From positions 248,001 through 312,000 of the forward strand of contig MU004187.1 in NCBI GenBank assembly GCA_010093605.1: DNA of 64,000 bases, given 5' to 3'. Under the pieces are notes generated by a model. It was not told the origin of the DNA, made no database searches, and was given only the letters and a program-made list of their open reading frames with translations. Position 1 is the first letter of the stretch, and each line of letters opens with the position of its first letter. Below are positions 33,844 to 62,107 of the stretch, one piece after another. Source of the DNA: Lophium mytilinum. Its lineage: Eukaryota. The position numbers were made by a program, and so were the translations under genes.

Positions 33844-34745
33844 GCCTGGGACCCTTTGCGAGACTTCCGAGAGGACTGCTTTATACTCCTTCACAACCGC
33901 GTGTCTACTACGATTCTCTTCAAAGTGTATCTTCTTGGAGCGGTTTTCCATCTCGAGCATAACTGGCGCTAGCAGGGTCTTCTTCGCATGATGGACTAAG
34001 TTGCATATTCCCCAGGCGTAAGAGCCGAGCATTTGTAATTCCTGAGGGCTTACCACGGCTACAAACTTGTATAAAATTCAAACAAACATGCTCAGGCCTT
34101 CTTTCCACGCCCCTGAACCCGCATTCTTGTGTGTGGTGTCCTTTCTCAAACTAATCAAATCAATAAAGTGAGGTTAAGCTAGACTCAGATCAAATCACGT
34201 GATAAACTCCAAACTTATCTAGAATATGTAGATAGATATCAGGGGACTACTATTTAGTGTATATGCGTGAAAAACCTTCAAAGAGGGATCCGAAAAGCGT
34301 TGCTAAAATGTTCTGACAATCTACCAAGCATGTCCCAACCCCTATCTTGTAGTACTCTACCAGAGACACTGCTTTACTCACGGAAGCCAAAGAGTCTCAG
34401 TCCCAGACACACACTTGTGATGATTGCCATACTTATTCACCTCGACATCACAGACAGCCTCCCTTGCCACATAATTTGCATTTCCTTACCATACCTCCGT
34501 TTCAACAGCATTTCAACACCTACCAAGAACCTCATCCACGACAACCTTGGCACGAGCCCCCCTCTGCCCCTTCCATCAGGTAGCTTATCATCGCCACCAT
34601 AATTAGCAAGAGGTACCAAGCCTAATTAGGCCAGACCATTCCAGCCACCCGTAGTGATCAACGTCAACCCTCTCCTTTATTCCCCTCTACGTCCAACTTC
34701 TCACACGACCTAACAGATCAAGGGAACCCAGCAACCTCGAACATC

Positions 34746-35879
34746 ATGAGTTACTACAGCTATAGTAGCTATGAATGCGAGACATGCGACCGCGAGTTCA
34801 CGACGCAAAGCGGTGCCAACAACCACATGAACGCTTTGGGACATTGGGCTCCTGTTTTCGAGTGCCAGACATGCGACCGCGACTTTACGACTGAAAACGG
34901 TGCGAACAATCATATGAACGCCTTGGGCCATTGGGCTCCAACTTTCCCGTGCGACACCTGCACGCTAGAATTCACGTCGGAAAACAATGCGAACATTCAT
35001 ATGAATACGTTCGGCCATTGGGCTCCAAGATTCGAATGCGAAGCTTGCAACGCAGCGTTCACCACCGAGCAAGGAGCGAGGGCTCATATGGAGCAGAGCA
35101 ACCACTTCCGTACTTACTATTGCTCGCCTTGCTCTCGCGGCTTCCAGAACAACAACAACCTTCAGCAGGTAAGTTTCTCTGTACATGTGCGTACCATTTC
35201 CTGCCAGCAGATGCTCACAAAGTCCAGCATCTCCGCTCCCGGGTCCACCGTCCTGTAGGTGTGGAATGTCCGTTCTGTCGACTGGACTTCGTGACTGCAT
35301 CTGGGGTAGCCCACCACTTGGAGCAGGGTAAATGTGCTAATGCTAAGGGGGTGAATCGAGAGTCCATCTACAAATTCAGTAAGTCTTTCTATATAGCCCA
35401 AACGTGTTTGCATCTGTTTCAGACTATTCAAAATGTACACCCAAATCGTACCGAGATGAAAGGCGTCTAGTACAGTACACACCAATCCTAGAACCCCAAG
35501 CTAACGCCTCCGAGTCCGCTCCCGTGACACAACCGGCGTCATCACAAAGAAGCTTCTTACCTACCAAGATGAGACGGCCGGCCAGATGTTCGCCACCACC
35601 AACACCTGGAATGGCTCCAGTTACGAGTGCTACCTCTGTCACCGTCACTTCCACCAGCTTCAGCATCTCGACCAGCATCTGAAGTCGCCTGTCCACAAGC
35701 AGCGCGTCTACCATTGTCCCAAGAAAGGTAGCTGCGGTAAGGAGTTCGTCAGTCTCGCGTCGCTGTTCAACCATCTGGAGAGCGAGAGTTGTGGGTACAC
35801 GCGCTTTGAGACGGTTCAGCAGAGCGTTGGTGGTATCATGACCGGCAGGGGAGGCCAGAGACTGCTGGGGTTTGCATGA
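34746..35879 (+). CDS. Multi-C2H2 zinc-finger protein with N-terminal tandem finger repeats
   Basis: Repeated ECxTCDRxFTTxxGANNHMNALGHWAP units, then CPFC..HHLE.G.C, YECYLCH and FNHLESESCG. Introns 35169-35227 and 35379-35514. Confidence 0.9.
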
Positions 35880-36018
35880 GGGGTTGAGAGGAGCGATGCC
35901 GGTTTGCAGACTAGATCTGAACGCCGACGTCCATCATCGTCGGCCTCGGTAAGGCTTTTGCGTGGTCTCCTTCACTAGAACATCAGAACTCTGGCAGTCG
36001 GATTGGGTTTGGAGTAAG

Positions 36019-36102
36019 GTATTGGGTGTACTGATATTGGGTATACTAGTATTGGGCGTACTGGTATTGGGCGTACTGGTATTGAGTGTACTGATATTGG
36101 GC
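36019..36102. repeat. 15-bp minisatellite, about 5.6 copies (GTATTGGGCGTACTG)
   Basis: Units are read directly; differences between copies are all transitions. Confidence 0.9.
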
Positions 36103-36303
36103 TTATGATAGTACCGCTACTTGTGTTAGCTATCAAGTCATAGCATTCGACCTAGACCCTAGAACTAAATACCACAATAACATACTTCACAAAGTAGTAG
36201 CAGCCCCTAGGGTATCTGCCCCATGGACTCTTTGGTACGGTGATGCCTCTGATAATGCCCCAGGGGGTTGGCGGTGAGTATATCTATCTGGCTGCCTCAC
36301 GCT

Positions 36304-36690
36304 CTATGTTCTCTCTTTCTCCTCAGCTAATTCTTCGTGTACGGTAGCTTTCATAGGTCTCATAATTGGATTCAAGGCATCCTACATCTGCCTTTTTCAA
36401 AGCATCTCAGCTTCTCCTCTTATTTAGGCCGCAATACCTTCCTTGTTGTCTGTGTCCACAGTCTTATCATCTACTATGAAGGTTGAAAACCATGATACAA
36501 ATCCGTTTGTAGTATTATTGCAAACGAGCTTTGATGCTATATAGCGCGCAACATCTGTGTTAACAATGACACTTAAATAGCTTTTCAATAAGGCCTTTGC
36601 GTGGCCCTCTACTTCTCTTACTATTTTTCCGTTGCTATGTGGTTCGTGAGAACCCCTGTGTGTTCCCTTTTCTCCTAGCTCGGTGCTAGA
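36304..36690 (-). pseudogene. Degenerate coding relic, possibly a dynamin-like GED fragment
   Basis: One frame reads ..HAKALLKSYLSVIVNTDVARYIASKLV..FVSWFSTFIVD..IAA*IREEAEML*KRQM*.. with in-frame stops at 36424, 36397, 36382 and 36304. The family call is resemblance only. Confidence 0.3.
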
Positions 36691-37066
36691 GGTATTCCGT
36701 TAGTCAAGCGTTGTAAGCTTGGGGCTCCTATGCGAGGTCACCTGTCTCGATGGCAGGGTCTTCCTTTGCTCTGTTTTCAAAAGCAATAGCTGGTGGCTAA
36801 TCCAGGTGCCTGCTGGGCTCAATGTTCAATAGGTCCAATGGGTTCGCTGGGTGCCTTCTATGACGCGTCCGCACACGGAGTAGGGCGCCTGCGAGGTCAG
36901 GGCAGCACAGAGGCCAAAAGACGATATAATCGAAAAGCAAGGACCGAGCAGTTGATACTCTGAGGCAAGATTGAACAGAAGAAGACCCTCATAAGGTCAC
37001 GTGAGAGCAATCCTTACAATTGTGACGTTCTTAATGCTAGATAGAAAACACATCCACTCTGTAGCC

Positions 37067-39051
37067 TTACCCATTACCATGCAAATATTTATGGCAAAGG
37101 TCTAGGGGCTGAACTACGTGTTGGTAAAGTTCCCGCCTCCAGGCATCACCGTCTGGAACTTTCTTACTGCCAAGCAAACACCAGTCCACAGCGCCAGCAT
37201 AATCAGGTCCAGCCTCCTCTCCTACTGTTTTGAGCCACTCGAAGGCAGCAAGCTGATCGAAACCTGACTTCGTTTGTTCGTCTCCGGAAGGGTATTGAAG
37301 GCGGGCTGGGTGGTTCTCAATCAACGTTCCAAAGCAAAGCTCCAATAAAACGACGCCGAGAGCGGCAAAGCTAGAAGAATTACTATTCTGAACGTGAATT
37401 GCTGAAGCAGGAGACGAGAAGTTGCGTGTAATGTAGGGCCGATCGAGCAGAATCGTATTGGAATCGTCGCAATCGCGAAGAAAGCATATCTCCGACTTAG
37501 ACCAGCAACCCTTCAGCCACGAAGAGTCACGTAGTTGTAGGAAAGACGATGCTAGAATTAGCGCGCTTGAATACCTCTGACGACGGCTTAGAGGCGGCTG
37601 AGCTTGTGGAGAGAGAAGTTGATCGAGGGTGGCCTCTCGATGAGTGGGGCTGCTAACTTTTTGTGGGACAAAAGACATGTAGCAGCGCTTGTCCTCATCC
37701 TCAAGGAACCCGCGGAGAGGAGTAGTGGGTTTACTGTTGCTTAGTGATAGGCACAGATTCTCGATCTTGGAGATACTGGCATCGTCATCAGTGAATTGCG
37801 GTGGTGGATTTCGTGAAGCTTGTGGCAAGAGATTCGATGTGAGAGTAATTGTCGGCTTTCTGAGTCAATGTTAGTCGCGAAATTAAAACATATCGATTCT
37901 CTACTCACTCAGCATTAGACACACAAGTGCTACTTTGACTCTGGCTAGTCTTACGCTGTGCTCCCAGGGACGGTCTTAAAGGCAGAGCTGTTCTGTGATT
38001 TGGTGTTGACGCAGGTGAAGAGGTTACTGAAGTCATGACTATTGGAACACTCTCAGAGGCGGGCAGAATAGCGTCAAGTAACTTGATATGTGCGTCCTGC
38101 GAAGACCAAGGAGTTGGAGTGGAGAAATTCCTCGACGCTGCAAACATGAATAGCAACCTGAACTCGGCTTCAGCACCAGTTTTGTGTTGAAGAAGCATTC
38201 GAACGCAATGCTCTCCCCAGCAATTGCATTTCCAAGCACCGGAAAGGAGGCTGTAAAGACGATCTGCATGCCGCCAAAACCGGCCCATAGTTGTGCTCAT
38301 AGTTGAAATTGCAGCTGATGCTTGCTGTGAGACATTCTCGCTTTCCAAGACAGCCATGACATCGCTTGTTCCCAACAATTTCTCTAGTCTCTCGTTGCAT
38401 GTTTGGAGCTCATCGAAGAGTCGTTTCCGATTGGGTTCTCCGACACTAAATTTGATGCGATATGCTTCGTATTCGAGATTGGCTTTGACGGAGGTCTTGA
38501 CCTTGGGAGTTTTTGGGACATGTTGTGTGTTCTGCCGCTTTCCCCATGACTTCGAAACCTAGTATGAAGGTGTGGTTAGCTTCGGGACGGTACGAGTAAT
38601 CTATCCGCTACGACGCAAGGGGAATCCGTGCACCAACCTGAAGCCGGCTAACTTTCTCTTGAAAGCCGGTCTTCTCCCCACCCAACTCCTTGTTGAGTTC
38701 GTTCATCGCTTCGTTCATCTGTTGCATTATGTGAAAGTATATCTCGTACGAGTCCTGGAGTCTGTCCTCGAGTTGCCTGGCTAGCTCTGGATCCTTCCAC
38801 CCCGCGCCACCTAGATCAGCAACGAGTCGTTGAATCTGGTCCTTGTCGGCGACCAATGGTAGTAAAAGCTGCTTGAGGTTTCTTGAGAAGATGACTCTAT
38901 GGTAGCTGATCTCGCTGCTGCACTTCTGGTACTCGAGGCGAATCTCCCACCAAAAACCAAGGCTCCTCGCAACCGTGCGGTACTTCTCCAATGCCGTTAG
39001 AGCTACCGGAAACGCACCGAGCACAAGACCGGCTATTTCAACCCCAGACAT
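37067..39051 (-). CDS. Protein with HeLo-like N-terminal helical domain and C-terminal kinase-like (DUF7580-like) domain
   Basis: MSGVEIAGLVLGAFPVALTALEKY start, RIKFS..RKRLFDELQTCNERLEKLL, C-terminal RRQRYSSALILASSFLQL..WL...WSKSEICF and LGVVLLELCFG..YAGAVDWCL. Three exons splice in frame. Confidence 0.82.
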
Positions 39052-39210
39052 GGCACAAAAGAGACTCACGGAAGACAAAGCGAAGAAAAAGAGGTGACGA
39101 GGTTCGTCGAGGCTGAAACTACCTATGGATGCGGCTGAGCCTCTGGAGTTTCAAGTCACATGGTGTGGGGTAATCAGCTCTACGTATCTATTCTAGCCTT
39201 GTAGCAAGCT

Positions 39211-42200
39211 ATGGAAGCTATTGCTGAAGCTTCGTATCACTCCGCAATGCCGTTCACTGCTGTCTCCGTTTCATCGACCAACGAGGGCACTCTCGACTCG
39301 CCCAAGCCCTCAATTGTGACGCTTACAAGGCGCACGAGGGCGAAGTTTGATCACCTAATCCTTCTATCAAGCACCCCCGAGCGTTCCCGGGCTCCTTCCA
39401 TCCCACTCTTTGCCCTTCAAGATGCCCTCGAACGATTTGATTTGTGGGCCGGGAATATTGGGGCCACCCAAGATGCTGGGCGGAGAGCATCGTTAGATTT
39501 TCGTTTGAACGATACTCCGGAAATCAAGGAGCAGATCTGCAGCCTATTGTCTGATATGATCGAAGCTCTGGACGACCGTGTGTTTCCCTTGTCTGTCACG
39601 CGTTCACAAAGTGCAAAAAGCTGATATGTGTTTAGTGGAAGAAATCATTACTGGCGAACGGGAAAATCGGACTAAAGACTCTGTAAACGTGGAGCTTGGA
39701 CGCGGACAGGATGATTTACCACTCAGTGTGGAGCTCGGCCCGGTCGACGAAGCGAAAGACATCCTAGGTGTGGTCCTAGATTGCCTTCGAAATCTTTTCA
39801 GGATTTCGATCGTCATCCGTAAAGCCTCTCCTAGGGACCGTTTCAGTAAAGCTCTCCAGAGATCTGGTGTTCAGTTTCTGGAACAGTTTGACGTCAATCA
39901 CGTTGCTGAAAAGTTTCCAAAGCTTGATAAACCCCAATGGGAGAGGTTACGAATCCGCTTAGGTCATGCTATTACTCAAAGGCGGCAGTTTCTTCACTAC
40001 TGTTCAGACCACCGAGACAGACTTGGCGGACTAGATATCGAAAACGATCCTCTCAACGCCGTTGTTGAGTCGGGAAGACCGGCAGCAACGACGATACAAG
40101 CATCGACGAAAGCCTCGACCCTAGATGTTACACGTTTAGAGTTTGAACCCTCGTGGAAGGATGAAGGAGACGACGGACTTTCGTACACAACGGTTGCATC
40201 ATCTATGGGCATTTCTGAGGGTAACCCACTCCAGCTCCCTACTCTTCACGATGTCTGCCAAGATCAAAAGGAGTTCGAATGTCCGTTCTGTCGTACAATT
40301 CAATCCTTCAAACGAGAGAAACAATGGAGGTGAGCAGCCGCCGCACGAATGGTTTACTACGTTAGCTGACAACTCATCGCAGGCGTCACGCTTTCACTGA
40401 TCTAAAACCTTACATGTGTAGCTTTGGAGAAGGGGAATGCGATCTCGAGCTCTTTGGCGATCGAAAGACCTGGTTCAGCCACGAGCTGCAACACCATCGA
40501 CGCCAGTGGAGCTGTATCTTCTGTACTAAGGAGCCGTTTTTCTCAATCGACCAGATCAAATCTCATATACAGTCCAAACACGTCAAACTGTCGGCCAAGC
40601 AATTCTTGGATATGGCTGAAGTATGCCAGCGGCCATTGGAACAAATACCCGCAGCCGACTGCCCGTTCTGCGACAAATGGGGACACCAATTGAGCACTGA
40701 ACACTCTGCAGACTTTGAATCCCTCGCGGATACTTCCGCTAAAGCAAGAGTCCTTGTAGACTCGAATCGCTTTCAGCGGCATGTGGCAAGGCATATGGAA
40801 CAGTTGGCATTATTTGCCGTGCCTCGACTTGCCACGCATAAACATGAGTTACCTAGCAGCACTGACACTGATGCGAAGGTTCCGTCTCAGGCGGGAAGTT
40901 GGTCTGACGCAGATGGTCTTGCTGACTACGTTTGGCAACCAGATCCTCCGCTACATATCGCTGCCTATAGCGGCAATCTGACCGAAGTCCGGCAACTGCT
41001 TGATGATGGAGCCGATATCCATTCCAAGGGCGAAAGTTGGGGTAGTGCTCTTCGTGCTGCAACTGCTGCGGATCACCCAGGGGTCGTCGAGCTGCTTCTC
41101 TCCCGTGGAGCAGAGCTGGACGAGGACTTAACGCGTGACTCTCAATCCAATACCACCACTTCTAAAGGCTCTCCAAATAGAGCAGTAAGTAGTAGCGACA
41201 AGGGAGGTGACAAAGAGCTAAAGACACAGACCCCAGAAATGAAGAGAGACCACGAAGACGAGCAGCTAAACTCAACGAATCAAACCAGCTCAGCCTCTCA
41301 TCAGGAGCCTGGCGCAATAGCGCCGGCACGGGCTTGGGAAGAGCGTAATCAGGACTATCAATGGGACTCGGTAGCTGAATCCTGGGTTTTTTCGAAAGAC
41401 CATGTAAACAATCTCGAGGCAGACTCCTCAGCTGGAGTGGTCAATGGCAGGAGTGAAAGTTTGACCACTTTTCAGCCTGCGATTGAAATTGGCAACCACA
41501 TTGGAGGAACGGAAGGCGAATTTGTAGAAGTTGATCCAAGTACGTAACGTTCCCGTGAGCAGATGCTTCAGCCATCCCGTCGCGCTGACAAAGCTAGGCT
41601 ATTGTGTCAGAAGTGATGCCCGCAGATTTTTCCGGACAGGCACAGTATGTCCCTTGCCATGTTATCCCCGAACAAGTCCTAACTGCTACCTATAGGTAAT
41701 CTCAGTTCTTTTTAATCAAGACCGCGGAGACATTGCACCCATGCAAGACAACGAAAATGTTACCGTAGTAAGGTATGGTGGTAAGATACTCATACAGGTA
41801 CGGCGGTTTGGTAAGAAGCGTTACCCTCATACAACTTTTTCACATCTAGCTAACTGGGGTTCACAGTGATTGTGCACGAAGGAAACGGGTTTTGCTATGC
41901 ATGGTGAGTTTTAGCCCTTTTCTTCACATTTTTCTAACCAATGATAGTCCGATTTTCACATATAGCAACCGCGCAACCACGAAGCCTGGATGTCGACCTG
42001 CAGAACACGCGATTATATATTATAGTACGCTACAATCGCCTATGCATCTACGCGGTGAAACGGGTATGACCAAACTTCCTATCGGAGTTTTGCCATCACA
42101 GCCTGAATCACGCCCTATGAGCACCGCATCCCGTATACGATTTAGCAAGGTGTATCCCATAGACTGGGGCGTTGAAGTGAAACATCTCGGTCAAGTGATT

Positions 42201-42263
42201 GACGAACACTTACCTAGGTTGATTGAGTACTATAGAGAGGAGGGTGGAACGGTTAGTGATTGA
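39211..42263 (+). CDS. Multi-domain protein: RFxLWAGNIGA N-terminal helical domain, C2H2 fingers, ankyrin repeats, C-terminal DUF6590-like domain
   Basis: ERFDLWAGNIGA..SLDFRL, LGHAITQRRQFLHY, FECPFC..RHAFTDLKPYMC, RHVARHMEQLALFAVP, PLHIAAYSGNLTEVRQLLDDGAD and PIFTYSNRATTKPG..HAIIY..SRIRFSKVYPIDW. About six introns. Confidence 0.82.
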
Positions 42264-43399
42264 TTGTTAGACTCTGCGCAGGTAGTTTGAAGTCTAATCT
42301 TGTGATTCGATAATTCCTCCCATGCACATAGATTTGACCCTGTAACACTATCACTCCAAAGATCCATAATCTCATCGTCTGAATCAACTTCGTTTGGTTC
42401 CTACACCGCCATTACTCGTCTGGAGCCGGTGTGAGTTCTTTGGTTTCAAAGATGACCTCAACCTCTCAATTAATCAACTTTTTCCCAACTCATTTACTCC
42501 GCGAATGCAATAAACACCTCCAATTCCTTTTTCGCTAAAAACTGGAATATGGTACTAAGTGGTGAGAATTCTGATGAATTGCTATGTAGAATGCCTGGTA
42601 TATTGGGCAGCGCCTGAGTCATGTGGTCTTATTTCAAATCAAACATTCTGGCTCGATCGTGTTCTACAAACTGCATCTCGGTCCCCACGACGACTGTGCC
42701 GCAGCGGGTAGCAAGGGTGAGCAAGCGTGAGCTGAAGTTGAGCCGGGCCTGAACCGAACACAGCGGCATAGTATATACTCAGATTTCAGGTGTCTTGAGA
42801 CAGTTCTCCCCAGGTCCATATCCCCGCTATAATCCAAGACGTCAATTTGATTAGTTACCTTAACTTGGTTTAGTGAGTTGCAGCCTGCGTTCATGGCCGA
42901 GGGCCTTTGAATTCGTGATCAAGGGCTAAACCTCACTCCCAAGGCTGACGCGATGCTTGATGATTTAGCATTATGGTAGATATCACTCTCCTATTCGTAG
43001 TATTCAACTTGGTCAGTCGTGATGCCACTTTGGCTTTGGTACTACCGAAAAGACAAGCGGTGTTGTATGTGGAGAGTCTTTATGACGGGAATGGAAAGGG
43101 GCCTTGCAATTCTAATGGTTAGGCTCCCGCTGTTGTTCAAGCAAAGTGCAATGCATTTGCTGTTGCTTCTACAAAGTACACATAATCTTCTCCTCTTCGT
43201 AATCGTTGCGGTCTAAGTCTAGGTAAGTATAATTATATTTCCAGTCAAACGTCAGAAAATGTGGAATTCTACAGAGTATGCGAATTCTCTTATACCCAAA
43301 ATCCCACAATTCTATTGAGCAACTGGGTCGACAAATTACTTTTTCAATAATGCTGATTGATCCTCTTTGTATGCATGAAACAATGTTACGGCCTTTGGC

Positions 43400-44179
43400 C
43401 TAAGGCCCTGGAGACGCTCGACGCTGACTCATTGATAGCGAATATGCGCTCATGCTCGCATCGGAAACAGAATCTTTCATCATGTCATCGACCTCAATCT
43501 TTACCATCCCGTCCTGGTTCTCGAGTCGTACAGCTTTACGCCCCATATCCGCGTCGGAAATGCTCCGGCCATCGATAGAAACACCAAGAATCAGATTTCT
43601 TGAATCAGGATAATCGAAATTGATGAGCTCTCTCCAGTTTCGAGTATGAAGAGCCTTGGTCATGAATAGTAAGACGACCAGCGAGTTGATGAAGAAGATG
43701 GCGTAGATGTAAACTCGTGTTCGAAATCGAATGGCGTTGACGTGGACGAAAGCTGGGGCGTCTGGGGAGAAGTTGCCAACAACGAGCTGGGCACTGCCGA
43801 AGGTAACAAGCATGTCGTCTGTCATGGCCAAGAAGGCCTGCTCAAAGCCAGCAAGTGTGGCCTTCACTTTCATTCGCGTTCGGGTTAGAAACATTGAAAC
43901 TTCTAATGCTAGATTTGAAAGCGTTGCCAACCACAAACTGATAAAGGTTTGTTTCCCCGGCAGAGATCTCTGTATACTTCCGCATGAGAGCCTGCGTGAG
44001 ATTGCGGGTTCTTCGAGATCGTTTTTAAAGCCACTAAGCGTTTCATTTGGGGTGTTCCCATCCCATCGTCTGTCGCACCAGAGGCCTAGAAAGAGTTCCG
44101 AAAGATCGACGCCATCTTTGATGCTTCTCGGGCCCAGTCTTCGAAATCTCTTTGCATAATGCGGAGCGTATCGCTCCAC
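43400..44179 (-). pseudogene. 5'-truncated fragment of an uncharacterised fungal membrane protein
   Basis: The ORF lacks an ATG start. The segment AMTDDMLVTFGSAQLVV..YIYAIFFINSLVVLLF..TRNWRELINFDYPD resembles the C-terminal TM end of a larger protein. Confidence 0.5.
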
Positions 44180-44319
44180 GGGCTGGACCCACCATTCTAC
44201 TTAGCTTTATAGCTATACATCTTCAAAGAGTTCAAGTTACCATTCTGCTAATAAAAGCTGCCTTCAGGCGTATATTTGTGCACTACTCTTGCCTTGGAAG
44301 TTTGGAGTGATCTGCGTCG

Positions 44320-44580
44320 CTTGCTTCTTAAGAGCTTAAATCAATTGCGCCGCTATTGCGGCAGTAGGTGCTTAATGAGTTGCTGCCTTCCGTTCCTTTA
44401 GTGCTTAGAGCTTTGGTAATCTTGTTAGCCTGCTTATATAGCGAACGTAAATATAAGACGGTAAGGGGTTCATGGGTTGGTAACTGGGGTATACGAGAAG
44501 TAGTCCCTTGAGTTAAAGAAGTGGCGGTGGCAATTAACCGTCTAAAGTGGGTTGGAGAGGATAGTAACCCCAATGTAATA
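44320..44580 (-). mobile_element. Possible decayed Fot1/pogo-like transposase C-terminal fragment
   Basis: TpA-rich patch; translation ..LRSLYKQANKITKALSTKGTE.. loosely resembles pogo C-terminal segments. Confidence 0.25.
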
Positions 44581-44600
44581 CCATTTGACTAAATTGCTGG

Positions 44601-47057
44601 TCAACGGTACTGTTTCCCGTATTGAGGCTTCTTTACAGCGTTCGTAGACAGTGCGCAGTGTTCTATGCCGTCGATTGCGCCCTCCGCTATGAGACCCCAT
44701 TGAACAGCCTTTAGATGTGGATCAACTTCATCTGACCGTGGGTGGCAAGCAGCGCTGATTACCAAACTACAGGATGCCGCAAGCGGAATATTGATCCTCC
44801 AACGTCGCAAGCTCATCGCAAGGATTAAGCAAAAAAGTAGGGTGAAGGTGATGGAAAGCACTAGGAAGCTCAATCTCGAGAAGCCGCAAGCAGACTTAGA
44901 ACCACTAGAAGTTACGAGGATGCCATCCTTGTCTTGTACGTCTATTCGAACGAGAAATAAACTCTGTGACATTAACCAATGTACAAGACAGCTGACCGCG
45001 GTAAGGGGGATTGCGTATCGAAATGGTAGTTGTAGGAAGTAGGTACTTCGCTGTTGTCCTTCTGGCTTTGTAACTCGGAGTCCTTTCCTAGATAGGGCAA
45101 GGTTGTCCCATTCAATGGCGTTCGCTATACAGGTGAAGAGTCCATTGAATGTCAGGTAGCCGATAGAGAAGAGGAGCTGGGAACAATTGGCTAGTCCAGC
45201 GTTGTAGAGGGTTCCTATTGTATCGAATCTACCCGCTCCGATAGAGAGCGTTGTAGTAGATGAAGTACCCCAAGAGCCCAGGCCACCATCATCGCCAGTC
45301 GATATGAAAACTATGATCATACCGGCCACGATCATGAAGAGACAGCTAGATTAGATCGCATCGTCAATCGTTGATACTAGAAAGGAGTTGGACGTAATGA
45401 GGAGTGCTCCCTTACATTGACATTCCAAATAGCTGCCTTCCATCACTGATTGCCTCACCATACATTCGCTTACGAGGCTTCCAAATACCGTTAAGACGTG
45501 AGTCCAACTTCGCGACCTTCTCTTCACTAACTAGGACGCTCATTTTTATCTGGCCGCCGAGATTAATAAGCATATCGTCTTTAGAAAGCGAACACAGCCC
45601 TTTCGTTACTGCATCCGGCCTTCCCAAGAACGACGCAGCGGCGTCTCCAAGTGTGACGAGATAAAGAGGACGCTCGTCCAAGAGTACAAGTAGCATTGCT
45701 ATCGCCTTCACAATGTTTGAGACAATAACGATAAGCATGAAGAACAAACTGATCTCCAATCTGCTATTCGCACCCCCTCTTGTTTCTGCGAAGGCGTAGC
45801 GTATGTGAATAGGGTAATGCTGATCCGACTGCAAGACTGATGCCGGAATCCATCCTTCGGCGCTCAGGCCTGGTACTGTAAAAGATGTTGAGTCCTTGTC
45901 AATGACCTCCGTTCTGTTTGTATGGTCAAAGAACTCAATATTGTTCAAACTGTTTGATGTGTTCGTGGAGTAAGTATTGTTTATGACCGAATAATAGGTT
46001 TGGAGGTCCAGGGATATCTCATCGGCGACGAGGAATAAATCGCCCAGGCCCGAGACGTAACTAGAACCGTATGAGCTGCGCCATTGCCCATTTGTCAAAT
46101 TTTGGTGCTTTGCTGAAACATTCTGCGCTGCTGAAATGTTCAGGAAAGTGTACTCGGGGGACATATATTCCACCACTGTCGTATCAAACTGATTTCCAAC
46201 GACAACATCGAAAACCGCCGAGTTATAGCTGTCAATATTAGACCAAATGGATAAAAATCCCGATAAACTTACAAAATGTGAAGTGGAATCGAAGAAATTC
46301 CCAATATGCACCAGAGGATTGACCTCTTAGTAGAGATGTGTCGAAGATTACGCGTGCTTAGGATACCGATATCGAGGTAGTTGCCTTCAGAGTGAACTTT
46401 GTCGACTTCCTCTCTCGTTGGAGAACTAAGGACTTGCATGGTGTAGTTGCTCGCACTTAACAAGAGCGTGCTGAGAATGTTGACGAGAATGTGAAATGCT
46501 GTACTCCAGCTAGTCACATACTCGGCTGAGCCTCGTACTAGGTGTGCGATGCCACGACTAAAGCCACCAGATACAGCGGCACCCGCTATCAAGATAACCA
46601 CGTTTGCCAAGCAAACAAAGACCGCTGTACAAAAGCCTGCCAGTACGCCCATACGCCATCCATCAAAGCGCCTGGCTTTCGCCCAACTGTTGAACTTTGT
46701 ACGCAAATGTAAGGCTTTGATGGAATCTACAAGAGCAGATATGGGGTTCCTGGTTTGATTTGCTGTGAGAGGAAGAGGTTGGGCTTCGGGAGAACTGGAA
46801 TTAATTATCAGCAGATGCCATAGGAGCAGCCTTGCTCAGCGAAAGACATACTGTAGATTACGAAGCTCTGTCCAATCTCCTTCGCCTGAGACTGTATAAT
46901 GGGACGAACGAGCCGAATGGCTCTCCTCGGTATCACTGTCGTCTTGGGTTCTCTCGGGTTCTCCTGGCGCCTGGGTTCTCTCCAACCCTTCTTGTGGGTC
47001 GGGGTTCATGACGCGTAGATAGCGGTACTCCTTCACAGGAGAAGGAGGATCGGACAT
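44601..47057 (-). CDS. DUF6536-like multi-pass membrane protein
   Basis: GWRMGV..HILVNILSTLLLSASNYTMQVLSSPTREEVDKVH..LDIGILSTRNL..SSIPLHI-YNSAVF, LVTLGDAAASFL, QRSTYFLQLPFRY and CSLVISAACHP; three introns. Confidence 0.85.
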
Positions 47058-49259
47058 GATGACAAGGTCGTATAGTGTCTTGAAGACTTGAGGAAACTAG
47101 TGAAATCTCGATATGTCAAGGCTGGCGACAAAGAAGTGGTTGTAAAGTCAGTGTACCGCAAGGCTGAACTCATGTTTTGACATGCTGGCTTCCAGGACAC
47201 CTTGGTAAAAAAGGGCGGGAGGCTTAGACAAAGAAGATGAAGGCCTTGACGTAAACCTAGAATCATGGCCCTCTCGCGAAGGCGTGTCGATGCAGGCGCG
47301 AAGGGGCTCTACTGCATGTGGTTTTCCATGTCCAGCCTCTGTTCCCGTCTGGTGGTCCCGCCCTCCCGTATTAAGCGACAAGCTAACCAATTAAGGTGGC
47401 ATCACCGGGCACCGGTAGGTAGGAATAGCAACTCACTGGCCAATAGATCGTCGAACCGGTCAAGTATTAGACCAGAAAAGAAGTCTACTAGGATCGGCTT
47501 AATTTAGCGCTAGATTACCGGACGTGAAGAGAGGCTTAAAATATTGGATTGTGCGACGGGAACTCTAGTACAGCATATTCCCACGTCTGGTGAACTAGCG
47601 CTAAGCTAAGTCGATCCTGCTCTATCTCGTTTCCAGGCTGTTGCTTAAGCGGCTTGAGGGATGATTGGCCAGAACGTCGCTATTACCCCCTAAAGACGCC
47701 CGGAGTTGCTCCTTTGAACGGCAAGTCTGTGGCTTGATATTAGAGAGTGACCACCGACGTGGGAAGATGCTGTAGATCGAGCTCATTGGTTGAAAACAGG
47801 CTTTTCTGGGGATCGTCACACCGTAACCACTTGTGATGCTAACCACGAGATGCGGCTCGAGGCTGTCCCGAGGACTGCAAGGCTCTCATTCGTCTTGTGT
47901 TTACACAAATAGCCTTGCTGCATGAGCTGAAGGCCATGCAAGCTCGGGATTTGCGATTGTTGGCCGCTTTGATAAAGAGAGCGCCACTTGCCAGGTTCTT
48001 CATGCATGTTAGCCGTGCCTCAAAAAGAAACAGCCCTCAAACTGGTTGCCTTCTCACGTTTCCCTTCTTTGGGACCTTCAACAGAGCCTCAATATCGCAC
48101 CTATTTGCTCGTCAATCGGGCAATCATGCGTGGGCGCGGAGGTCCCGAGAGACTAGAATCGGTGACTGGCAGCCCCTCTGACGCTGGCAACGCTCAGGCG
48201 CTGCAGGCGACGAGGAGCGAGAGCGCGTCGTATCTCGCCTACCCCTCAGCTTGCGGGACCGAGCCGGTCCGTCCCGATCAGGTACCAGATGGCTGGAATT
48301 TGCCACATCCTCTGCGTAGCCATGGCGATAATTATCTCTCAGGGCATACAGCGTAGCGATTCTGCGGATCAGTCGGTATTCCACGCGGTCCACAAGGCCA
48401 ACATGGAAGTATAAGACTTTGGGCCGCAAAAACCATCGGTCTTATGAAGAAGAAGCAAGAAAGATAGCTCAAGAAGATCTACGAAAACCCCCCGGGGCAG
48501 AATGGCCGGATGAGATCGAGACTTTGAGTGCGAGCGACGGGACTAAGATCACGCCAGAGACGTTGTCCCTGCCGACGGTGACGATGCTGACGACGAGGGT
48601 ACCAGGAATATTGAACCGCTGTACTGGGTTCCATATGTTCACTATGGTGATTGATCTGCTCCTCGCTCAGGTCGAGATCACTTGAAGAGGCTGCAAAACG
48701 AAGGAGAGTAACACGAGAATAGGGGATTGGTAGTGTGTAGGCTGGTGTGGCATAATAGAGAGATGGAAGGTCGCTCTCCCATAGGCCTGCCAGGTAAATC
48801 TGCAACACGAAATCAAGTAGAGACTTCTGCGAATATATTGTCTTACTTTGCTCTCCCGCTCTGAGCCTTCGTGCCTCTACTTGAGAAGTGAGAGGGTTCA
48901 AAGCCTACACTCCTTAAGATTTCCACACTAGTTGTACCTGTGTGCAGCTCGTGTAATTACCAATTACCACCTGGCAAGTCCTCTCTCTGCTAAATATGTC
49001 GTTTAGCAATATTGAGGGACTTGCCGTTCGTTTTTGCGGTCCTCCAAATCGTCATTTATGGTACTGCTTGCTATTAGTACCGTCGAAGTGAACGCAGACC
49101 AGTATCCAGAGCCCAGTCCGCCAGGCATTCGAGGTCATCTTCTCGTAATCTTCGACATCAGCCCAATCCAGGGTGCTGTTGGTTTACTATCTCCCTTAAA
49201 GTCATTCTCCTCCGTTCGTGAGTATCAGATGCATTCTCATCGCCGATGCTTCAGACTTT

Positions 49260-60023: not shown

Positions 60024-61400
60024 TCACCTTTCCGGCCGCCGCCGCTCCACGCTTCGGCGATAGAAGACCATACTCTGCTCAGTTCTGCCGATATGGTATA
60101 ACGTTGACCCTGAATACAAAACAGCCGCCATTTTCCTCGCAATCTGCAGCGTTTTGCAACTAATCCCCTTACAAGACTTCCTCCTCCCTCTTATATCTGA
60201 ACTTTTACTTAAAGGCTTGTGGTGTCCCGCTTTTGCTTTCCGCCGGGCTTCAGAGCCCTTCGCCTCACTCCATGACTTTGACGACGGCATGTCCTTCAAC
60301 ATGACCCTTATAGCCTCACAAAGAGTCTCGCACCCATACTTCGTCGTATTACTCGGTTTCATGCGCAGCCCCTCTCCCCGGACGACCATGCCCAACAACG
60401 CATGCACATAATCGACCGACCTCGTAGCCTTCGACGCCTCGGAGAGGTAAATGAGTGTCGCTAAAGAAAAACCATTCGTACTGCTCTGACTCTTGCGATA
60501 CATCTTCGAAATTAACCACACAGGCTGCTTCTCCATTACCTTTCGCCTAGCCTGGCGCAGCCTCCGCTCACTAAAATCCGCAATCGCTACGTTTATTGAG
60601 AATTCAACCAATTGATCCCACTTCAACCACCCATCCCCGCATACCAATGTCGTGTTCTGGGATACCGCCAGCTCCTGCAGTATCCAAATCCGTTCCCAGT
60701 ACTCCCTGGTGAAGATATCGTCAATGGCTTTTGCGAAGCGGGGGTCTCGGGCGAATGTCTCTTCAATGTCGTCGCAGAAGTCGTCGTTGGCGATGGTCAT
60801 TGTATCGTCTGACATATTTTTCCTCGTGGATAGTGGGAGCTGGGTAATGTATTTCATCGCGCGCGTCGTTGACCTATTGCCAGGCCCAAGCCATGCTATC
60901 GTTTCAACGGCCGTCGCGTAGATGGACCTCATGATCCCCAGCTGCGCGAGTCGCTCCGCCTCGCTCTCTTTGTCTTGCATGATGCATAGTGCGTCGATCC
61001 ACCACCAGCGAGTTATGTTGTAGCCCTTTTTGTAATACTGGAACTCGGCGATGTGCTCGAGCACGTCTTGGAGATTTTCCCGGACGCCGAATGGGGCGTC
61101 GTTCACCTCGATTTCCCAGTACTCCTCTGGACCCCAGCAGTAGGACAGCGCGCGGTAGTCTGGCGCTTCGTCTTTTTTAAAGTGGCGGATGGTGCAGCAG
61201 GGCATGAAGCCTTTCTTGGCTGATTGGACCTTCAGAAGGCGGATATACCGGGTGGGGTCGCGCAATGGGGTGTGGATGAAGTTTTCGTCCTCATCTGTCG
61301 AATCTGTGTCGCTCTCTTCCTCTTCAGTGTCGCTAGCGTCGAAATTGACGTTAGTCTCGAATACAGTGCTGTCGTCGCTATCATAATCTTCGTCGCTCAT
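60024..61400 (-). CDS. HET (heterokaryon incompatibility) domain protein
   Basis: IRLL, YRALSYCWG, WIDALCIMQ, QLGIMRSIY..WLG and YWERIWILQE; acidic N-terminus and basic C-terminus. Confidence 0.93.
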   Translation of the reverse strand: MSDEDYDSDDSTVFETNVNFDASDTEEEESDTDSTDEDENFIHTPLRDPTRYIRLLKVQSAKKGFMPCCTIRHFKKDEAPDYRALSYCWGPEEYWEIEVNDAPFGVRENLQDVLEHIAEFQYYKKGYNITRWWWIDALCIMQDKESEAERLAQLGIMRSIYATAVETIAWLGPGNRSTTRAMKYITQLPLSTRKNMSDDTMTIANDDFCDDIEETFARDPRFAKAIDDIFTREYWERIWILQELAVSQNTTLVCGDGWLKWDQLVEFSINVAIADFSERRLRQARRKVMEKQPVWLISKMYRKSQSSTNGFSLATLIYLSEASKATRSVDYVHALLGMVVRGEGLRMKPSNTTKYGCETLCEAIRVMLKDMPSSKSWSEAKGSEARRKAKAGHHKPLSKSSDIRGRRKSCKGISCKTLQIARKMAAVLYSGSTLYHIGRTEQSMVFYRRSVERRRPER

Positions 61401-62107
61401 GATGATTGCTCGAAATGAAAGTAGCCTTAGTTTCCCTCATTCGCTGTAGTTAAAATATCTGAAGACGGTAAACAAACCGCAAAGAGATCGATTGTATACC
61501 TCAGGGACTCGGATGTGACGAACGCGAGGTGTGTCTTGCTGCTAGCTCGTGGTGCGACCTGGCTAGGTATATGTACAATGCCGTTGACGGGCAAGGCTGA
61601 AAACCGTATGCACTGCCACGGTGTCGAGCTGGAATTGGCTTAGCGATTATAATGGATTCGATTAGCTCTCTCTAGGCGATCGTTGCCTGAGTCCAGAATC
61701 GTGCGGGGCGGGAATGATGCAGGGTGGCTGCGCCTCACTTCTATGCTCCACCACTCGTTCTGAGTTCTGCATGGGTGCGCGATACTAGGGGTGGAGGGCT
61801 AGCGCGTGAGATGAAGAATGACGAAATTGACGAAGATAAAAGAAGCGATAATTTTGAAGTCGAGAGGTAGAGTCTGCTGTGTTTTGCTGGGATCAGTGGT
61901 ACATGAATAAACGATCGCTCGTGTTCGAGGAGAGTATACAAGTTCCTATAAACGAATATAGCATGGACCCTTGACTTTCATTAGCGACACGAACAACTGC
62001 TCGGCTCTGACAGAAGAATAGTTCATCGGAATGTCCTAATATATTATAGTAGTACAGTAATCGGTTTCCGCCAAAACGCCAAACACCATATGATCTCCAC
62101 GCCTGAA

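Follow-up and report, generated by a model that had tools for sequence, protein, structure and literature searches.

Immunity and allorecognition in fungi are known to make use of gene pairs in which one product acts as the executioner and the other as the sensor. To our knowledge, activation has so far been described by two logics only, in which HeLo/HELL proteins are templated by amyloid or gasdermins are cleaved by a protease. Here we consider a gene pair from Lophium mytilinum that we compare with these systems. It is located in a 64,000-nucleotide stretch of GenBank assembly GCA_010093605.1 (contig MU004187.1, positions 248,001 to 312,000, forward strand), which is referred to below as the window and from whose first letter all positions are counted. 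Gene A, on the minus strand, encodes a protein in which a helical N-terminus is predicted to precede a catalytically dead kinase fold, and gene B, on the plus strand, encodes a zinc-finger core followed by ankyrin repeats, a linker and a DUF6590 domain. We hold with high confidence that A and B make up a functional unit, a real module. The pair is best read as a conserved, divergently transcribed module of filamentous ascomycetes in which a sensor would control an executioner of cell death, a reading to which our confidence is evenly divided between assent and doubt.

As to the published background, fungal cell-death pathways are described as often encoded by clusters of two or three genes, and kinase or pseudokinase proteins as the carriers of some of the HELL domains (PMC12881547); HeLo and MLKL are covered in another source (PMC10197012). 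The nucleotide-oligomerization domain (NOD)-like receptors (NLRs) of Sordariales possess C2H2 and other zinc-finger domains, mostly C-terminal, none of which could be linked to the A–B pair, and a term search within that account returned none of 'AcuF', 'pseudokinase', PF26082 and PF24476 (PMC12258605). By the same kind of search, 'pseudokinase', 'zinc' and 'C2H2' were not found in a further source (PMC9815663). A full-text literature search, with supplements outside its scope, found no mention of DUF7580, DUF6590 or 'acuF-like', and among the reviews and surveys of NLRs retrieved for MLKL, HeLo, pseudokinase, zinc finger and fungi in combination, none was found to describe the A–B pair.

Linkage and shared inheritance of genes A and B

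Linkage was tested in the direction from A to B. Scanning of metagenome contigs of the Joint Genome Institute (JGI) with the gene A alignment produced 263 pattern matches, 110 of them confirmed as relatives, and the 80 loci that were kept were searched by tblastn with 34 homologues of gene B. A locus was counted as informative when it contained the N-terminus of gene A along with 1500 bp or more upstream. All 42 such loci, of the 80, possess a B-type match on the opposite strand, with its nearest end 162–880 bp from the start of A. After clustering of the A regions at 95% nucleotide identity, 55 distinct loci remained, 23 of them uninformative due to short upstream sequence or a 5'-truncated A, and B was present upstream in every one of the 32 informative loci. 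As to incomplete A matches, a truncated one with 1310 bp upstream (L039) is not accompanied by B, a C-terminal fragment with 2735 bp upstream (L063) is not accompanied by a B core, and another truncated one (L077) has a B-type match 27 bp away.

As a neighbour control, all open reading frames (ORFs) within 5 kb upstream and 5 kb downstream of A were compared against each other. One upstream ORF family is found in 32/32 loci, while among the 28 loci with at least 1500 bp downstream no family is common to more than two, which argues that these loci are not merely syntenic copies of one genome. The A proteins encoded by the metagenome loci are 27–51% identical to the A protein of the window. In Polyplosphaeria fusca, Corynespora cassiicola, Massarina eburnea and Karstenula rhodostoma, the contigs that carry the A and the B homologue also agree in length, and the two proteins of Massarina eburnea are numbered one after the other (466398 and 466399).

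Phylogenies were inferred separately for A and for the core of B from stitched tblastn translations for 31 loci and the window, with the exclusion of locus L058, which contains only about 950 bp of B. The two trees have 19 of 29 bipartitions in common, compared with 0.17 on average and 2 at most for permuted labels, and the patristic distances for the 32 A–B pairs are correlated with a Mantel r of 0.866, a value reached in none of 2000 permutations. These comparisons show that A and B are inherited as a unit. The original prediction had proposed a module with start codons at 39051 (minus strand) and 39211 (plus strand), about 160 bp apart; the coordinates give 159 bp, and both the count of divergent neighbours (with no conserved neighbour downstream) and the congruence of the gene trees agree with that proposal. 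Its description of the genes as co-transcribed was wrong, as they diverge from a shared 159-bp region.

Gene models and the predicted structure of gene A

The exon structures were derived from a single 5098-nt contig of public run X1, which extends over positions 36900–42240 and lacks every one of the eight introns; the run is labelled 'RNA?' by guess. Of its eight joints, two fall in gene A and six in gene B, all being GT..AG on the strand of the respective gene. When the window is spliced at these joints, gene A translates exactly into the protein P0001 (BU16DRAFT_507162, 618 residues, 'DUF7580 domain-containing protein'; identity over the C-terminal exon 100%), and gene B becomes an intact, seven-exon ORF of 910 residues ending at 42263. 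The deposited model of gene B (P0010, 465 residues, 'partial') ends after the zinc-finger core and drops 25 conserved residues as a false intron, residues that the X1 contig keeps. As the spliced ORF is intact, the core, the ankyrin repeats, the low-complexity linker and DUF6590 belong to one gene, as had been originally claimed. The features of the pair are as follows.

37067..39051, minus strand: gene A, 618 residues, three exons, MLKL-like architecture by prediction, DUF7580 family (X1 contig joints; translation equals P0001)
38638-39051, 37909-38558, 37067-37859, minus strand: the exons of gene A (X1 contig joints)
37860-37908, minus strand: the gene A intron within the pseudokinase part
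38638..39051, minus strand: gene A exon 1, residues 1-138, predicted hydrophobic GxxxG helix and helical bundle (AlphaFold2 models with predicted local distance difference test, pLDDT, of 82.5 and 85)
38235..38501, minus strand: gene A residues 158-246, two long modelled helices (158-177 and 179-246) that would connect bundle and kinase, in the position of the MLKL brace
37070..38234, minus strand: gene A residues 247-618, predicted pseudokinase, DUF7580 (PF24476), interrupted by a disordered insert (residues 301-372) (Pfam, Foldseek, VIA-align)
39052..39210, no strand: region between the two ATG codons, 159 bp, presumed shared bidirectional promoter (coordinates; spanned by the X1 contig)
39211..42263, plus strand: gene B, 910 residues, seven exons (six GT..AG joints in the X1 contig; spliced ORF intact)
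39211-39577, 39636-40329, 40383-41539, 41598-41644, 41696-41810, 41867-41903, 41948-42263, plus strand: the exons of gene B
39211..40827, plus strand: conserved core of gene B, helical N-terminal part and four zinc fingers of C2H2/C2HC type (zf-C2H2_AcuF, PF26082)
40942..41121, plus strand: two ankyrin repeats (Pfam Ank, E 6.1e-8; Ank_2 and Ank_4 also)
41122..41539, plus strand: low-complexity linker, enriched in Ser, Thr, Asp and Glu (translation; no Pfam match)
41598..42260, plus strand: DUF6590 (PF20233) tail over four short exons (Pfam E 1.4e-25 on the last exon)

The structure of the gene A protein was modelled by AlphaFold2 with an alignment of 67 homologues (pLDDT 82.5; predicted template modelling score, pTM, 0.68). 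The model contains helices at residues 3-31, 34-63, 70-78, 88-122 and 128-142, then at 158-177 and 179-246, and a mixed alpha/beta domain at 255-618 that is broken by a disordered stretch (301-372). DUF7580 (PF24476) is recognized over residues 377-608 with 75.3 bits versus a cut-off of 27, its E value on the C-terminal part being 3.9e-20 in the scan of the window, and 66 of the 67 family members match it. When Foldseek and VIA-align were run with the model, only kinases were among the matches listed, over residues 231-618 (best Foldseek E 5.5e-3). The kinase fold is visible in the predicted structure only, the family profile having found no kinase in PDB by sequence at E<=10. The catalytic motifs are virtually missing from the family, with HRD present in 1/67 members, DFG and VAIK in 0/67 and GxGxxG in 5/67, and conservation stays below 90% in every Asp or Lys column of the 67-member alignment. 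Given the absence of the catalytic residues, the C-terminal domain is, according to the model, a catalytically dead kinase fold, a pseudokinase. Thus the claim that gene A lacks HRD and DFG is correct for P0001 and extends to nearly all of the family, and the proposed resemblance of its C-terminal end to a kinase C-lobe is retained as far as kinase likeness is concerned, the model containing a whole kinase fold, over about residues 237-618, rather than a C-lobe only. With respect to single residues, C249, C251 and H255 are nearly invariant in the family and C391 is invariant, C530 and C582 being further cysteines of this kind; the first four may form a structural site for zinc in the N-lobe region of the pseudokinase.

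For the first helix, the Kyte-Doolittle hydropathy averages 1.88 across residues 4-20, the family median being 1.9. A GxxxG motif is found within the first 16 residues in 54 of the 67 members, and in 50 of the 67 no other 17-residue segment of the entire protein is as hydrophobic as the helix. By its sequence, the helix has membrane propensity, in agreement with the hydrophobic N-terminal helix noticed originally. Weak Pfam matches to CENPH and DUF6388 (E 0.0011-0.2) were treated as coiled-coil noise. Overall, the helical N-terminus, the hydrophobic first helix, the long linking helices and the dead kinase fold are, in the model, the arrangement of MLKL, and the layout of helical bundle plus pseudokinase originally proposed for gene A is supported by both the model and the motif counts.

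The relationship of the gene A N-terminus to HeLo is a separate question. In a feature search of the ESM Atlas with residues 1-250, HeLo (PF14479) clusters made up 7 of 30 matches (best score 0.93, 178 shared features), such a match being a lead not calibrated for parts of proteins. Pfam HeLo matches below the cut-off of 23.2 bits occur in two of the 67 homologues (best E 0.014). One of the homologues, P0076, aligns with its residues 127-238 to profile positions 84-190 (E 0.021, 15.1 bits) in a plausible register, by which a HeLo-like domain would span about residues 1-250, and the match itself falls on the region of the linking helices of gene A (residues 158-246). Two of 84 database homologues are named by their source 'Prion-inhibition and propagation HeLo domain-containing protein', a naming that is unlikely to be independent of the Pfam signal. 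HeLo is missing from the 25 families listed for 60 N-terminal fragments (0/60). The model of the 138-residue N-terminal part alone, cut at the end of the first exon, retrieved generic helical bundles, with neither a HeLo nor an MLKL N-domain among the 50 matches listed, and Foldseek gave E 1.2 or worse, the cut possibly having halved the domain. As to the claimed helical N-terminus of HeLo or four-helix-bundle (4HB) type, the helical bundle is upheld by the model, and the HeLo/4HB fold is a candidate assignment, being sub-threshold in Pfam and absent from the fold matches listed.

The core and the tails of gene B, and the surroundings of the pair

The family zf-C2H2_AcuF (PF26082) is precomputed on all 34 proteins found with the second exon of gene B, P0010 included, and the core is related to PF26082 clusters in the Atlas with a feature score of 0.98. 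In an alignment of 32 homologues, a conserved helical block is followed by four Cys/His clusters, with C320, C323, C348, C353, H397, H402 and C433 invariant (numbering of P0025). The classical zf-C2H2 family has no match on P0010, zf-C2H2_4 comes no closer than E 0.27, and Pfam recognizes no NACHT or NB-ARC (NOD) domain in the gene B exons of the window. In the tail, the last exon matches DUF6590 at profile positions 62-151 with 90.5 bits versus a cut-off of 27, and the X1 joints tie the DUF6590 exons in frame to the ankyrin exon; nothing meaningful was found for the DUF6590 exon among PDB sequences at E<=10.

The tails of the relatives were scanned in 83 of 209 upstream ORFs of at least 110 residues, namely those with a length of about 190 residues and above, in the 32 loci chosen as representatives. 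These ORFs yielded ankyrin, TPR, DUF7104, an NPHP3_N P-loop with many ankyrin repeats, ankyrin with Pkinase, tyrosine phosphatase, C2, annexin/GATA, Myb, Bud6_N and PigL_N (formerly Helo_like_N). The homologues in databases add NB-ARC (P0018), CNH, kinase with TPR, and RRM tails, and an Atlas cluster adds a PNP_UDP tail. Much of this repertoire recurs among the domains of fungal NLRs. Of 18 loci checked, 11 (L013, L028, L033, L034, L036, L037, L038, L041, L046, L047 and L057) have the tail in the same uninterrupted ORF as the motif ending the core, and the tails joined in this way are ankyrin, DUF7104, TPR, NPHP3_N P-loop with ankyrin, ankyrin with Pkinase, tyrosine phosphatase, and C2; fusion of core and tail in the remaining loci is likely or uncertain. 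Among the uninterrupted ORFs, one of 1429 codons (L037:4174-8460, minus strand) joins the B core to an NPHP3_N P-loop NTPase and an extended array of ankyrin repeats, by its predicted domains an NLR-like protein that begins with the zinc-finger core. In L018:5059-6060 (minus strand), PigL_N/Helo_like_N (E 1.3e-41), typical of the N-termini of fungal STAND (signal transduction ATPases with numerous domains) proteins, starts nine codons past the in-frame end of the core match, with an in-frame stop farther upstream inside that match. When the gene A family was compared by hhalign with the Helo_like_N-bearing ORF of L018, the probability was 0.6%.

Tails also differ among close relatives. In one tight clade, L033 possesses DUF7104, L034 TPR, L036 DUF7104 plus ankyrin, L046 a phosphatase, and L051 no tail detected. 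Judging from these domain assignments, the tail of gene B appears to be exchanged freely, the core being the constant part paired with A, and the swappable tail of the original prediction is what the catalogue displays. DUF6590 was not seen in the ORFs scanned from the 32 related loci, and thus the combination of ankyrin and DUF6590 in the window is not sampled elsewhere.

The pair sits in some 13 kb (34.6-47 kb) of non-housekeeping genes bounded by PRP3 and Utp6, an interval that contains a C2H2 gene of jaz/zf-met type, the A–B pair and a DUF6536 gene. The first of these (34626-35880, plus strand), just upstream of the pair, encodes tandem C2H2 fingers and an internally repeated peptide and is, by Pfam, unrelated to the gene B core; the DUF6536 gene (43400-46835, minus strand; E 7e-45) has multiple exons and lies directly downstream of gene B. 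The rest of the window is rich in housekeeping genes, such as those for syntaxin-5, eIF2B, RIO1, RPB3, chorismate synthase, RPC4, PRP3, Utp6, TFIIB, SAM synthetase and RPL5. Over positions 36000-48000 the GC content is 0.456-0.499, versus 0.50-0.585 in most of the flanking 2-kb bins, which is consistent with a non-core insert among housekeeping genes. The 'accessory block' in which the pair had been placed is only weakly checkable and may correspond to this non-housekeeping stretch of lower GC. An ORF with a HET (heterokaryon incompatibility) domain is found at 60027-61436 (minus strand; E 1.2e-25), about 18 kb from the pair, and another HET-domain ORF (3-1526) is located near the pair of locus L022.

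Possible functions and comparison with known systems

Gene B has the look of a modular sensor, with a constant head matched to gene A. In a sensor/executioner scheme, which would be the most parsimonious mechanism, the tail of B would sense a cue, the core of B would then act on the pseudokinase of A or lift its restraint, and the N-terminal bundle of A, once freed, would attack membranes, resulting in regulated cell death. Such a scheme would be akin to the RIPK3-MLKL, NLR-HELLP and protease-gasdermin pairs, the link in this case being a zinc-finger adaptor. A bolder extension, which we put forward tentatively and with more doubt than conviction, is that the pair may represent a third, undescribed class of fungal death module, widespread in filamentous ascomycetes, in which the switch for an MLKL-like executioner would be direct contact with the zinc-finger adaptor, with no need for phosphorylation, amyloid templating or proteolysis, and in which the adaptor would head a fast-diversifying family of sensors, including NLR-type ones. 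A complex prediction for a gene A protein (P0069, full length) and a gene B core (P0025, residues 118-485), with alignments unused, scored 0.00, which is evidence neither way.

A number of observations weigh against the cell-death reading. With respect to the executioner, P0001 has no Pfam HeLo match at E<=10, and the 15.1 bits of P0076 compare with a cut-off of 23.2; no HeLo, MLKL or kinase chain of PDB was found at E<=10 with profiles of either the N-domain or the full-length gene A. A search with the N-domain among 1.84 billion representatives returned 1416 clusters at E<=1e-3, and the best 150 of these are all of 658 residues or fewer, being full-length A-type proteins or fragments, so that within those 150 the N-domain is never carried on NLR-sized proteins, unlike typical HeLo/HELL domains. 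With respect to the sensor, the zinc fingers of gene B could bind nucleic acid. With respect to the unit itself, the congruence of the trees is also expected from shared species history, from which co-evolution is not separable, and the A and B homologues listed for Phaeosphaeria sp. and Alternaria alternata are on contigs of unequal length, though these could be other paralogues. Likewise, X1 being RNA is a guess only, and its contig across both genes presents the spliced form of each and is not evidence of a single transcript.

Of the alternatives, the one that survives best is a non-lethal signalling or scaffold module, in which gene A would be a docking platform and the core of B would recruit the varied enzymatic and repeat tails, for example in stress, trafficking or cytoskeletal signalling. 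It would accommodate the same linkage and the same tails, and we consider it possible, if on the unlikely side. That gene B is instead a C2H2 transcription factor acting on the shared 159-bp promoter, regulating A and perhaps itself, with the two proteins not in contact, is improbable: the four C2H2-like fingers and the divergent promoter speak for it, but the finger spacing and the family zf-C2H2_AcuF are unlike classical tandem DNA-binding arrays, fusions to NACHT-type P-loop/ankyrin, TPR, kinase and phosphatase domains would be odd for a regulator of one gene, and tight co-divergence over the whole core is unexpected for such a regulator. Fortuitous adjacency, or adjacency due only to recent common ancestry of the sampled genomes, is close to refuted, with A proteins just 27-51% identical to that of the window and any downstream family in at most two of 28 loci versus B in 32/32, even if the relatedness of the metagenome loci is not directly checkable.

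If the sensor/executioner reading holds, three 'domains of unknown function' would gain a role, an MLKL-like protein would gain a new mode of control, and the tails of B would amount to a catalogue of candidate sensor domains. If, beyond that, the third-class proposal were true, the pair would be a eukaryotic counterpart of the modular defence pairs of bacteria and would fill a gap in how necroptosis evolved. Death module or not, A and B offer a clear example of an obligate pair of eukaryotic genes, and one that can be tested.

In comparison with known systems, gene A has no detectable sequence similarity to MLKL of animals or to the MLKL-like proteins of plants, its bundle being likened to theirs by arrangement, as a candidate homologue of 4HB. 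It further differs from MLKL by a 70-residue disordered insert in the N-lobe region of the kinase and by a partner that is a zinc-finger protein and not an active RIP kinase. By score, the two genes belong to PF24476, PF26082 and PF20233, families of unknown function. The HET-S/NWD2 and HELLP-type clusters are similar in that a putative membrane-targeting helical protein adjoins a modular sensor-type protein (PMC10197012, PMC12881547), and some relatives of gene B carry NACHT-like or NB-ARC domains along with ankyrin or TPR repeats. Unlike in the HeLo/HELL-NLR systems, however, gene A ends in a predicted pseudokinase and not in an amyloid prion-forming motif (no search aimed at such motifs was made), the constant part of gene B is a zinc-finger core and not an amyloid motif, and most gene B proteins, the one in the window included, lack a NOD domain. 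The fungal gasdermin/protease clusters share the two-gene logic and a regulator with variable repeat or sensor domains (PMC12881547), while Pfam found neither a gasdermin nor a protease domain in gene A or gene B. The pair would be a variant on the fungal two-gene cell-death clusters, belonging to a large family (1416 N-domain clusters), and the linkage of A to B is as strict as that in the HeLo/HELL and gasdermin systems.

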